A DNA stretch of 64,000 bases from Klebsiella phage vB_KpnM_Croc_ER14. Below, in pieces: positions 31,602-34,939 of this stretch. The notes under the pieces are model-generated. The model worked only from the letters and a program-made list of their open reading frames with translations, did not search any database and was not told where the DNA came from. Positions within the stretch are counted from its first letter, which is position 1. The number at the start of each line of letters is the position of its first letter. A program made the translations under genes and the position numbers. The stretch lies in sequence record PP738763.1, one strand, 5' to 3'.

Positions 31602-32264
31602 ATGTCTTATACGATCAAAGGTCTGTTGAAAAGACCTGTCCATTTGTTCCATAAACCGCCTGCCGTTGTCGGGGAATATCCGGCAAGAGGAGAGCTTTAT
31701 TATGTCAAAGGCTCCAACGGTAGTGGCAAGTCTACCGTTCCGTCCTGGATGGCGGAGAATGATCCTCAGGCATATGTCGTGACCCACAATGGTAAGGTGA
31801 TGCTGACCGTTTGCCCATCATTTAATATCATCTGTGTCGGCAAATATGACAAATCTAAATCTAAAGGGGTTGACTCTCTAAAAGACACAGAGCAGATGCT
31901 ATTCGCCGTGTCTATCACCGAGCAACCTGAATACATCGGGTATGATGTGGTCTTTGAAGGTATTATCCCTGCTACCTTGCTCAATACGTGGATTGAACGT
32001 CTAAACCGCCCGACCCGCCGCCTTGTGGTTCTGTTCTTGGATACCCCCAAGGAAGTATGCCTGGCGCGTGTGAGTTCTCGCAATGGGGGTGAAGACTTCA
32101 AACACGAACTCGTCCTGGAGAAATGGAAGCGTGTCAACTCTCACCGAGAGCGGCATAAAGAGTTGTTCCCTAACATTCCTGCGGGTATGATGAAGTCTAA
32201 TGGTCTGACCGTTGATCAGGCTGTATCTGCGTTTCTCAATCGTGATTTTGGAGATATCGTCTAA
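31602..32264 (+). CDS. P-loop kinase (GSNGSGKST), translationally coupled to the hydroxymethylase; candidate nucleotide/DNA-base kinase
   Basis: Walker A GSNGSGKST near the N-terminus, about 220 aa, no phosphatase domain. Stop/start overlap TAATG with the next gene. Confidence 0.6.
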   Translation: MSYTIKGLLKRPVHLFHKPPAVVGEYPARGELYYVKGSNGSGKSTVPSWMAENDPQAYVVTHNGKVMLTVCPSFNIICVGKYDKSKSKGVDSLKDTEQMLFAVSITEQPEYIGYDVVFEGIIPATLLNTWIERLNRPTRRLVVLFLDTPKEVCLARVSSRNGGEDFKHELVLEKWKRVNSHRERHKELFPNIPAGMMKSNGLTVDQAVSAFLNRDFGDIV

Positions 32265-33307
32265 TGGAAATTTTTGCTTTAAACAACAACGACATGCTGA
32301 AGAAAGCTGTCCTGGCTATCCGTGAACATGGGATTGAGTCTGATCCCGGTAATGCGGAGATTAATACTGATGGCACCCGGTTTCTTGATGACGTGACCAT
32401 AACCGTATCGGACATCCGTGACCGCTGGCTTTCTGTTGAAGGCCGTAATTCATCTGCGCTGGCTGCTATCGGCGAGACCTTCTGGGTTCTGTCAGGCCGC
32501 AATGATATCCGTTTCCTTTCCCGAGTACTCCCCCGCGCGGCCAACTTCTCTGACGATGGCGTAACCTGGCGCGGCGCGTATGGCCCACGCCTGTACAATC
32601 ACGGGCAGCTGGATAGCGTTATCAACCGTCTGCGCAAGAATCCAAATACCCGCCAGGCTTATCTGACAATCTACGACCCGGCGCTGGACTCTGATGAAGG
32701 TTTGGCCGCTCATAATGAAACAGGCGAAGCCAAGACCAAGGACATGATCTGTAATCTGGCTCTTTTGTTCTCTATTAAAAACGGCTGTCTGAACATGACT
32801 GTTATCAACCGTAGCCAGGATGTTCTTTGGGGGATGTCTTCGATTAACTTCATTGAATTCTCTATTCTTCAGGAAGTGATCGCTAATGTTTTGGGCGTGA
32901 ATGTCGGCCAGTACAAGTTGTTCTCCTACAATCTTCATTACTACAACAATGAAGTAAGTCGTAAACAGCTTGGTGGTATCACCTGGAAAACACAAACTTC
33001 TACTGGAGGCCTGGTGTGTTCTTTGCTGTCTTTCAATCGTGACAAAGTAAAGAACCAGAACGACATCCGCAACCTGTTCCTGGGCGTCCTACACCATTGC
33101 GATATCGGAAGCGACTTTGGTAAAGTCCGGGAGCATCTTTCTCAGTTTGATGCTGACAAAGGGCTTATGCTGGATATGGCTTATTGTCTATGGTGTCGCC
33201 TAAACGGTTCGAAGATCGACAAACGCAGCATTGCTGATGACGGTTTACGGACAGCATTAATGCATTCTTCGGTTGATCGGAAATATATTTGGGGACAAGG
33301 CGAATGA
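32264..33307 (+). CDS. 42: deoxypyrimidylate hydroxymethylase (thymidylate-synthase superfamily, T4 gp42-like) with ~100-aa C-terminal extension
   Basis: NPNTRQAYLTIYDP corresponds to gp42 NPDSRRGIMIYTRP. DMICNLALLFSIKNGCLNMTVINRSQDVLWGM corresponds to gp42 DFMCTNTVQYLIRDKKINAVVNMRSNDVVFGF. 347 aa versus 246 aa in T4. Confidence 0.75.
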   Translation: MEIFALNNNDMLKKAVLAIREHGIESDPGNAEINTDGTRFLDDVTITVSDIRDRWLSVEGRNSSALAAIGETFWVLSGRNDIRFLSRVLPRAANFSDDGVTWRGAYGPRLYNHGQLDSVINRLRKNPNTRQAYLTIYDPALDSDEGLAAHNETGEAKTKDMICNLALLFSIKNGCLNMTVINRSQDVLWGMSSINFIEFSILQEVIANVLGVNVGQYKLFSYNLHYYNNEVSRKQLGGITWKTQTSTGGLVCSLLSFNRDKVKNQNDIRNLFLGVLHHCDIGSDFGKVREHLSQFDADKGLMLDMAYCLWCRLNGSKIDKRSIADDGLRTALMHSSVDRKYIWGQGE

Positions 33308-33873
33308 TGTATCCTAATCTTGAATTTTTCACGGGGCGCAAGCGCTCCGGTAAGGACTTCTGCCTTGAATCTCTGATCAGTTTCCATGAAATTCAGGGTT
33401 ACAAAGAAATCCGCCGTCTTTCATTCTCAGACGAACTGCGCCGGGTGGCCAATTATATCTACCCATGGTTGCCAGCGGACGTAGACGACGCTATCAAGGA
33501 CGTTCCGTTCGTTCACCCAGATAACCATCAGGGGTTAACCCCAAGGCAGATCTGGCTCCATCTCGGGAGCGCCTCTGGGCTGCGTTATGTTCAGCCAGAC
33601 CTATTCCTGGCGTTTTTTAAACGTTATCAACTCCCTCTCGTTGAGGCTAATCCTCATATCCATTATATCGTCAGTGATTTGCGTACTCCCCAGGAATATG
33701 AATGGGCGCTGAGCACTAAATGTCCTATCACGCGCATTTCAAAGGCAGACCGTGCCGGTATCATAGAAGACGATATAGAGGCGTTCATTGATGAGATGAA
33801 GGTCAATTATGAATTTGTCAATCCGTTCCAGGGGTGGGCACCATTCGTCAAATTCTATGAGGAAAGGAAATGA
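33304..33873 (+). CDS. 1: deoxynucleoside monophosphate kinase (T4 gp1-like)
   Basis: FTGRKRSGKDF corresponds to gp1 LSGVKRSGKD. IVSDLRTPQEYEW corresponds to gp1 IVPDTRQDHEMD. ATGATG overlaps the upstream TGA. Confidence 0.75.
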   Translation: MMYPNLEFFTGRKRSGKDFCLESLISFHEIQGYKEIRRLSFSDELRRVANYIYPWLPADVDDAIKDVPFVHPDNHQGLTPRQIWLHLGSASGLRYVQPDLFLAFFKRYQLPLVEANPHIHYIVSDLRTPQEYEWALSTKCPITRISKADRAGIIEDDIEAFIDEMKVNYEFVNPFQGWAPFVKFYEERK

Positions 33874-34421
33874 TAACAGCAGATCATATTAAAAGACTGC
33901 TCCAACTCCAAGAGGCCACTAATGTGGCCTACTTTGGGGAAGAGTGGGAAAAGTATTGGACTCACGTTGCCGTAACGAACTCAATTTATCGTGAATGGGC
34001 AGAATTCCTTGATGAAACCACCAAGGATTGGAAGATTTATGGGAATGGTATCCATTTCAATAGAACGGATGCCGTCTATGAATTGGTTGATGTGGTCCAT
34101 TTTATGCTGTCTTCCATATTGTCCGGGTATGGTTCTGCGTTCCCGATCGAAATGCAATTTGATCTTTTCTTCAAAGAAGGTCAGGTAATAGACAAATCTG
34201 CTAATCTGGTACATGTCACCGAACGGTTCACGTCGTTTATGGGACAACCCGATATCATCCGGTTTGTACGGTTCTTGGTATGCGCCTGTGGTTATCTGGG
34301 ACTGGACGCCGAGACATACATGCTGGCGCACAAACGCAAAAATGATCGTAATCGGCTGCGCGCTGCAGGCGGCGCTGACTACGACAAGTCCACAGAAATC
34401 CCTCTGACCCTGGAGTTCTAA
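33870..34421 (+). CDS. 56: MazG-like dNTP pyrophosphatase (T4 gp56 dCTPase-like)
   Basis: ELVDVVHFMLSSILSGYG corresponds to gp56 ELVDIFHFVLNMFVGLGM. C-terminal YMLAHKRKNDRNRLRAAGG corresponds to gp56 YYLKNKENFARQDRGY. Confidence 0.7.
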   Translation: MITADHIKRLLQLQEATNVAYFGEEWEKYWTHVAVTNSIYREWAEFLDETTKDWKIYGNGIHFNRTDAVYELVDVVHFMLSSILSGYGSAFPIEMQFDLFFKEGQVIDKSANLVHVTERFTSFMGQPDIIRFVRFLVCACGYLGLDAETYMLAHKRKNDRNRLRAAGGADYDKSTEIPLTLEF

Positions 34422-34939
34422 TGTTTACGATTAACATCTCCATCTCGGCCGAGAATCTTCAGACCTCGGTCAGTAATTTCATTGAGCACATGAAACCCCT
34501 TGGGCATGTGGTGCTCAATTGTAAGTTAGACGTCGAAGGCGGGGTTGCGGAGATGTTATTTACAACACCTTCCCCAACAGACGCATTCGTCTTGATTGAG
34601 CGCTGGGCATCGGAGGACATTCCTGTTCCAGCGCCGTTGCAGGATATCTATTTCAGCGAGACGATTTATTCACTCCATACCATGCCCAAAGATGTTAGCC
34701 AGGCTGATATTGTTCGTCTGATTAATCATAACATAAACTTTGGGTGTATCGTTCGGCGTGATAACTATCGTTTACGCAATCATTTCCTGTATGATAACCA
34801 GAACCAATTGGATGAAGATTCATTATTATCCATCAAAACGATGCAGGAAGCGATTAATATTTTGTCTAAGAAGGTTCTGGGTGCAGAATTATTAACCACA
34901 ATTAACAAACAAGAGGAAGTAAAATGGCCAGTTCATTAA
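34421..34939 (+). CDS. hypothetical protein (172 aa)
   Basis: Coupled (TAATG) between the dCTPase-like gene and uvsX. Confidence 0.45.
   Translation: MFTINISISAENLQTSVSNFIEHMKPLGHVVLNCKLDVEGGVAEMLFTTPSPTDAFVLIERWASEDIPVPAPLQDIYFSETIYSLHTMPKDVSQADIVRLINHNINFGCIVRRDNYRLRNHFLYDNQNQLDEDSLLSIKTMQEAINILSKKVLGAELLTTINKQEEVKWPVH

Follow-up and report, generated by a model that had tools for sequence, protein, structure and literature searches.

A gene cluster of Klebsiella phage vB_KpnM_Croc_ER14 as the probable front end of a ViI-type thymidine-hypermodification pathway

Introduction

The closest described counterpart of the gene cluster considered here is the thymidine-hypermodification system of Salmonella phage ViI. 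The cluster itself lies in Klebsiella phage vB_KpnM_Croc_ER14 (PP738763.1), of which we analyzed a stretch of 64,000 nucleotides (hereafter, the window). It comprises five consecutive open reading frames (ORF1–ORF5; Table 1) followed by uvsX. A family of DNA kinases acting on 5-hydroxymethyldeoxyuridine (5-hmdU), denoted 5-HMUDK, was predicted computationally in 2013 (Iyer et al., as cited in PMC8989533). Members of this family co-associate with a dUMP hydroxymethyltransferase of the thymidylate synthase (TS) family, and 5-(2-aminoethoxy)methyl-dU (5-NeOmdU) was reconstituted with the ViI proteins gp67, gp160, gp226, gp243 and gp247 (Lee et al. 2018, PMC5889632). A later study established that gp67 (Vi01_061c, YP_004327432) is a 5-hmdU DNA kinase, which yields a phosphorylated nucleotide on 5-hmdU DNA in vitro, that gp247 transfers serine to 5-PmdU and that gp226 decarboxylates O-serinyl-thymidine (Lee 2021, PMC8989533). 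According to the same study, thymidine in these phages derives from 5-hmdU after replication.

Throughout Ackermannviridae, the genes of this pathway are conserved (2024 review, PMC11721090). Moreover, DNA of the Taipeivirus phiHS2 was found by high-performance liquid chromatography–mass spectrometry (LC-MS) to contain 5-NeOmdU, with 16.4% of dT replaced, and it resisted nine of the 10 restriction enzymes tested, the exception being HincII (2026 preprint, bioRxiv 10.64898/2026.05.19.726188). The system is thus already known in both the family and the genus. Below we show how the Klebsiella phage locus compares with it, and argue that the cluster is very probably the front end of a ViI-type thymidine-hypermodification pathway in a Klebsiella Taipeivirus.

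Results and Discussion

Organization and conservation of the cluster

All five ORFs lie on the plus strand, and each is open and in frame with a single terminal stop. Consecutive ORFs overlap by 1, 4, 4 and 1 nt at junctions of the TAATG or ATGA type, and the start of uvsX overlaps the end of ORF5 by 16 nt. We could thus reproduce both the coordinates and the overlaps of the initial annotation, which was made from the DNA letters alone and described a five-gene operon with a stop/start overlap at every junction. Gene order turned out to be conserved in all 19 related viral contigs, and also in further metagenome contigs. Since ViI has identical 1/4/4/1/16-nt overlaps and the order is kept in every one of these relatives, the arrangement is not a matter of chance. 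The overlaps probably serve to hold the enzymes and UvsX at a fixed ratio on a single transcript.

A megablast search with positions 31000–35500 returned 273 records, and with few exceptions these were from phages of Salmonella, Klebsiella, Escherichia and Dickeya. The closest relatives were Klebsiella phages PWKp5, FKP10 and KZag1, with 98.1–98.4% identity over 100% of the query. The alignment with FKP10 (Ackermannviridae, Taipeivirus) extends over nearly all of the window, with 96–99% identity.

Apart from its overall conservation, the cluster shows a mosaic structure between positions 32264 and 34421. Here, diverged alleles (62–81%) are found for the dNMP (deoxynucleoside monophosphate) kinase gene, the dUTPase-like gene and the 3′ portion of ORF2, flanked by genes that are 98–100% identical. 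At two loci (L009 and L010), the kinase, ACT and uvsX genes are 98–100% identical, the dNMP kinase gene 75% and the dUTPase-like gene 62%. Among Kutterviruses, the dUTPase-like alleles are at 83% in some and at 59–66% in others; the gene falls into two allele classes, which cross genus boundaries. In L032, a more distant relative whose ACT protein shows 35% identity, the kinase and the hydroxymethylase are separated by an additional ORF of 189 aa (3260–3829) without a Pfam match. Therefore, direct coupling of these two genes is not universal.

ORF1 as a 5-hmdU DNA kinase

ORF1 matches the Pfam family HMUDK_HMUD1 (PF18748) over the entire profile (positions 1–196 of 196; E = 9.8e-106), with a score of 352 bits (cut-off, 27). 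Other Pfam families reach 22 bits or less on this sequence, and NCBIfam nucleotide-kinase models about 17 bits. The Walker A motif GSNGSGKST, correctly picked out by the initial annotation, occupies residues 37–45 and fits the P-loop pattern GxxxxGK[ST]. ORF1 is syntenic with ViI gp67 and 79% identical to it over 219 aa, compared with 24% identity to the ViI paralog gp243. Moreover, it adjoins the gene of a predicted dUMP hydroxymethyltransferase, with an overlap of 1 nt. The PF18748 score and the syntenic orthology with gp67 support the earlier proposal of a 5-HMUDK-type kinase that initiates base hypermodification. An ordinary nucleotide kinase, named at the time as one of the outcomes that would speak against this proposal, was checked for, and the corresponding families stay at or below 22 bits. 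A sequence search of solved structures with ORF1 gave only P-loop noise, represented by the nucleotide-binding domains of CFTR (E of 0.02 or worse).

The ORF listing places the start of ORF1 at a TTG codon (31590). The ATG at 31602 is likelier, because it is conserved, follows a GGGG sequence (in relatives, GGAG) and agrees with the ViI annotation.

ORF2 as a predicted dUMP hydroxymethyltransferase

The nearest solved structure to ORF2 is the CMP 5-hydroxymethylase MilA (E = 8e-18); the best true TS follows at 8e-7. NCBIfam TS equivalogs all failed on ORF2, with 29–56 bits against cut-offs of 108–405. These matches, together with PF00303, bear out at the level of sequence the initial assignment of ORF2 as a pyrimidine hydroxymethylase of the TS family. 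We aligned ORF2 with its ViI ortholog, the enzyme of the M6-like phage LKO4, T4 gp42, T-even td and MilA. Residues E71, C163 (the catalytic Cys), R183, D186, H225 and Y227 are conserved. An insert of about 18 residues, which contains Trp and is present in td, is absent from ORF2 and likewise from T4 gp42, MilA, the M6-like enzyme and the ViI ortholog.

In the TS family, Asn or Asp at the pyrimidine-specificity position sets specificity for uracil or cytosine, respectively. Asn195 of ORF2 corresponds to Asn in td and in the M6-like enzyme, and to Asp in T4 gp42 and MilA. The initial annotation had left the target as "thymidine/cytidine". The thymidine part stands (5-hmdU leading to 5-NeOmdU), but the cytidine part does not, given Asn195 in place of the Asp of gp42 and MilA. 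ORF2 is thus predicted to be a dUMP hydroxymethyltransferase rather than a canonical TS. Its product would be 5-hmdUMP, as suggested by the 5-hmdU-derived bases in ViI and phiHS2.

A hydroxymethylase reaction regenerates tetrahydrofolate, and no dihydrofolate is produced. As the initial annotation had stated, the 64-kb window lacks genes for a canonical TS, dihydrofolate reductase (DHFR) and glucosyltransferase, insofar as tblastn found none with E. coli FolA as the DHFR query and with the T4 beta type as the glucosyltransferase query. None of the three is listed in the annotation of FKP10 either. The failure to detect DHFR and a second TS fits a hydroxymethylase, which releases tetrahydrofolate and makes DHFR needless.

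Alternative explanations

Public records suggest a different role for the cluster: homologs of ORF2 are called 'thymidylate synthase', and PF00303 is indeed matched. In addition, ORF1 weakly matches dTMP and CMP kinase models, and most thymidines in the virion DNA of ViI and phiHS2 are canonical T. One could therefore regard ORF2 as a genuine TS and ORF1 as an ordinary nucleotide kinase, with the cluster raising the supply of dTTP. We consider this very unlikely. TS equivalogs remain far below their cut-offs on ORF2, the Trp insert is absent, the nearest relative of known structure is a hydroxymethylase and DHFR was not detected in the window. As for ORF1, 352 bits on the 5-HMUDK model stand against about 17 on nucleotide kinases. 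Moreover, its ViI ortholog phosphorylates DNA, and the abundant canonical T is itself made from 5-hmdU after replication (PMC8989533). Even less credible is the reading of ORF1 as a terminase small subunit, to which we assign next to no probability, although phrog_800 bears this label and matches ORF1 with E = 1e-63, and many GenBank records use the name too. ORF1 is a P-loop kinase that spans the whole 5-HMUDK model but matches only positions 4–220 of the 511-position PHROG profile, and LKO4_0013, the M6-like kinase of LKO4, likewise falls into phrog_800. In ViI and FKP10, the small terminase is encoded by another gene, which adjoins that of the large terminase, and kinase activity has been demonstrated for the ViI ortholog.

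A T4-like cytosine pathway, with ORF2 as a dCMP hydroxymethylase, ORF4 as a dCTPase and ORF1 phosphorylating 5-hydroxymethylcytosine (hmC) in DNA, also has real parallels. The correspondence to gp42, gp1 and gp56 is genuine at the PHROG level, the best PDB match of ORF2 is a CMP hydroxymethylase, and the order of hydroxymethylase, uvsX, small ORF and gp41 resembles T4 42, uvsX, 40 and 41. Nonetheless, we judge such a pathway extremely improbable. Asn195 at the specificity position of ORF2 is shared with td and the M6-like dU enzyme, in contrast to the Asp of gp42 and MilA; the encoded dCMP deaminase would drain dCMP; and tblastn with T4 beta-gt found no glucosyltransferase in either the window or FKP10. 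Finally, LC-MS of ViI and of a Taipeivirus shows a thymidine derivative.

Proposed pathway

By analogy with ViI, thymidine hypermodification in the Klebsiella phage may proceed as follows. dCMP deaminase and ORF4 would supply dUMP, and ORF4 would probably also clear dUTP and dTTP. ORF2 would hydroxymethylate dUMP from methylene-tetrahydrofolate to 5-hmdUMP, with release of tetrahydrofolate and not dihydrofolate. ORF3 would then convert the product to 5-hmdUDP and the host NDP kinase to 5-hmdUTP, allowing the phage polymerase to place 5-hmdU instead of T. After replication, ORF1 would phosphorylate 5-hmdU within DNA, as demonstrated for ViI gp67. Two enzymes encoded outside the window are expected to complete the modification, in both cases by reactions demonstrated for ViI. 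The gp247 ortholog (aGPT-Pplase2) would swap the phosphate for serine to give O-serinyl-thymidine, and the ortholog of gp226, dependent on pyridoxal phosphate (PLP), would decarboxylate it to 5-NeOmdU. Leftover 5-hmdU would be converted to canonical T, and the modified base would protect the DNA against restriction endonucleases.

Orthologs of gp160, gp226, gp243 and gp247, that is, the aGPT-Pplase and tailoring enzymes, were not found in the 64-kb window. FKP10 has the whole set, with identities of 73, 89, 72 and 85%, respectively, outside the region that matches the window. The initial annotation had suggested a search of the rest of the genome for PLP-dependent, radical-SAM or glycosyltransferase genes. 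In FKP10, this yielded the PLP enzyme but not the other two: its annotation contains no radical-SAM enzyme, and the T4 beta-glucosyltransferase query had no significant tblastn match.

Several points weigh against the pathway proposed here. The genes of the later enzymes are not part of the window, and their presence is predicted from the 98%-identical relative FKP10. Similarly, the DNA composition of this phage is extrapolated from relatives, and the substrates of ORF4 in the pathway are presumed. The assignment of Asn195 in ORF2 hinges on an insertion of one residue in the alignment. For ORF2-type enzymes of Ackermannviridae, hmdUMP rather than dTMP is the predicted product. Finally, a strong terminator is located 11 nt upstream of the ORF1 start, and no convincing promoter was found.

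Nucleotide-supply genes

Coordinates of the cluster genes and of other relevant features are given in Table 1.

Table 1. Features of the cluster and of its genomic context in the window
Feature	Coordinates	Strand	Length (aa)	Basis or remark
Hairpin with T-tract, intrinsic-terminator-like	31545–31595	+		Directly upstream of operon; loop TATAAT
ORF1: 5-hydroxymethyl-dU DNA kinase (5-HMUDK), ViI gp67 ortholog	31602–32264	+	220	PF18748; 79% identity to gp67; Walker A
ORF2: TS-family dUMP hydroxymethyltransferase (predicted)	32264–33307	+	347	PF00303, E = 2.4e-14; 86% to ViI Vi01_060c
ORF3: dNMP kinase, T4 gp1 type (predicted)	33304–33873	+	189	phrog_139 'dNMP kinase', E = 7e-44; 88% to ViI dnk
ORF4: all-alpha (dimeric dUTPase/gp56-like) dNTP pyrophosphohydrolase (predicted)	33870–34421	+	183	PF08761, phrog_173; 66% to ViI
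ORF5: ACT-like (ferredoxin-fold) protein	34421–34939	+	172	PF24021 ACT_phage, E = 1.3e-79; 43% to ViI; end overlaps uvsX start
uvsX: UvsX recombinase (context)	34924–36009	+		PF00154 and PF21134; ends overlapping gene chain
nrdA, nrdB, glutaredoxin (dNDP supply, context)	15354–19051	+		Pfam Ribonuc_red_lgC/lgN, ATP-cone, Ribonuc_red_sm, Glutaredoxin
dCMP deaminase, likely dUMP supplier for hydroxymethylase	50971–51483	-		PF00383, E = 1.2e-16; 69% to ViI dCMP deaminase
Second MazG-like pyrophosphatase (ViI Vi01_011 ortholog)	59908–60486	-		76% identity; Vi01_011 annotated 'MazG-like pyrophosphatase'

T4 gp1 belongs to the same PHROG family as ORF3 (E = 2e-65), and their BLASTP match is confined to the P-loop G.KRSGKD (E = 0.002). 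No Pfam or NCBIfam model matched ORF3 above its cut-off, nor was there anything meaningful among solved structures. NCBIfam offered no specific model for the other four proteins either. ORF4 scores 33 bits on PF08761 (dUTPase_2; cut-off 22.9) and matches C. jejuni dUTPase (1w2y, E = 7e-4). Its PHROG family, 'NTP pyrophosphohydrolase', includes T4 gp56. Thus, the gp1-like and gp56-like labels of the initial annotation hold at the level of PHROG families; direct BLASTP similarity of ORF3 and ORF4 to the T4 proteins is marginal. The nrdAB, cd and dNMP kinase genes reported for the window were also recovered, as nrdA, nrdB, glutaredoxin, dCMP deaminase and ORF3.

The second MazG-like pyrophosphatase gene adjoins topoisomerase II, and its product had no Pfam match at 1e-3. 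In ViI and FKP10, a third MazG-like pyrophosphatase (Vi01_131c) is encoded beside the aGPT-Pplase1 gene.

ORF5, an ACT-like protein

ORF5 had been described as an unknown 172-aa protein. The length is correct, but the protein can be assigned to a named Pfam family, ACT_phage. Residues 1–90 are predicted to adopt a ferredoxin/ACT-like fold, with generic structural matches; a sequence search of solved structures returned nothing meaningful. Homologs of ORF5 were found on Ackermannviridae-sized contigs only, in every case flanked by the dUTPase-like gene and uvsX.

The C-terminal peptide QEAINILSKKVLGxELLTTINKQEEVKWPVH (34850–34939, residues ~143–172) is near-invariant across genera, and the remainder of the protein is about 35–43% identical. 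We considered whether the tail might be conserved because of an RNA or DNA constraint tied to the uvsX start. This was ruled out: between the window and ViI, only 13 of the 29 identical residues in the tail have identical codons. Since synonymous sites vary, the constraint acts on the protein and not on the overlapping uvsX start region. Whether ORF5 represents an undescribed accessory factor of the hypermodification pathway is doubtful, and we regard this as unlikely. If it does, it could regulate the hmdU nucleotide enzymes by sensing a ligand, act as a tether to UvsX or the replisome, or take part in the conversion of 5-hmdU to thymidine.

Upstream hairpin

A terminator scan upstream of the cluster detected a 9-bp stem (31559–31579) followed by CTTTTGTTTA. 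The hairpin (GGGCTGCTATAATAGCAGCC followed by TCTTTTGTTT) folds with -25.5 kcal/mol (z = -5.3), and 11 nt separate its end from the start codon of the kinase gene. The window has a single copy of this element. Its conservation extends from Taipeivirus to Kuttervirus and to still more distant relatives, across which a base pair of the stem passes from G-C through G-T to A-T. With its perfect TATAAT loop, the hairpin may act as terminator and promoter at once. Upstream of the operon, sigma-70-like sites are about as frequent as expected by chance (15 found, 12 expected), and none is located between the terminator and the start codon.

Other observations in the window

A 219-aa ORF (14633–15292, plus strand) between phoH and nrdA has an HNH-like motif, HHIIPKCLGG...N...H, and no Pfam match at 1e-3. 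The segment that contains it (14619–15363) is absent from FKP10, and the ORF probably encodes a mobile homing endonuclease. Another segment, 1.6 kb in length (40346–41975), does not align with FKP10 and contains three small ORFs. One of these (40728–41336) is PspA/IM30-like, with E = 1.5e-7 that is under the Pfam cut-off; a PspA_IM30 match is found at the equivalent position in the distant relative L032.

Implications for annotation

Misannotation of the two central genes is systematic. The 5-hmdU DNA kinase is labeled 'terminase small subunit', a name that stems from PHROG 800 and is spread by pharokka and RefSeq, and the hydroxymethylase is labeled 'thymidylate synthase'. In Klebsiella Taipeivirus genomes, these labels hide restriction-resistant hypermodified DNA. 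The modification bears on phage sequencing, cloning and engineering, and on susceptibility to host defences. Therefore, the value of the present analysis is mainly for annotation and phage therapy, and little of it lies in discovery.

Comparison with known systems

The hmC pathway of T4 resembles the present cluster in combining a hydroxymethylase of the TS family with a dNMP kinase and with a dNTPase that removes the competing nucleotide. However, T4 modifies cytosine (gp42 has Asp179), and the modification is completed by post-replicative glucosylation rather than by phosphorylation followed by amino-acid transfer. T4 is devoid of 5-HMUDK, and also encodes td, frd and alpha- and beta-glucosyltransferases. 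The cluster does not belong to the T4-type glucosyl-hmC systems, as beta-gt had no significant tblastn match in the window or FKP10 and ORF2 has Asn, not Asp. In T4 the gene order is 42, beta-gt, segA, uvsX, 40, 41, and in the window (32264–37750) it is hydroxymethylase, dnk, dUTPase-like gene, ACT gene, uvsX, orf109 and gp41-like helicase. It follows that the modification genes sit in a comparable slot upstream of uvsX.

Like the Klebsiella phage, Pseudomonas phage M6 and its relative LKO4 (Yuavirus) encode a 5-HMUDK (phrog_800) as well as a dUMP hydroxymethyltransferase, in which both the Asn and the one-residue insertion recur. In contrast, their genes form a tight cluster that also encodes a radical-SAM isomerase, the pathway leads to 5-NedU, which has a C-C linkage, and the hydroxymethylase is only about 30% identical.

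Much closer are members of the same genus, namely Taipeivirus phiHS2 and Klebsiella phages FKP10, PWKp5, KpS110 and Menlow, with FKP10 and PWKp5 at about 98% DNA identity. FKP10 carries the full set of orthologs of the ViI hypermodification genes; elsewhere, the window shows small insertions and deletions relative to it.

ViI (Kuttervirus; NC_015296) differs from the present phage, a Taipeivirus on Klebsiella, in genus and host, and ORF5 is only 43% identical outside the conserved tail. Nonetheless, ViI has the same six genes in the same order (Vi01_061c–Vi01_056c), labeled gp67 5-HMUDK, 'thyA', dnk, dUTPase, 057c and uvsX, with the overlaps described above. Identities between the window and ViI for ORF1–ORF5 and uvsX are 79, 86, 88, 66, 43 and 69%, respectively, and the upstream terminator hairpin is common to both.

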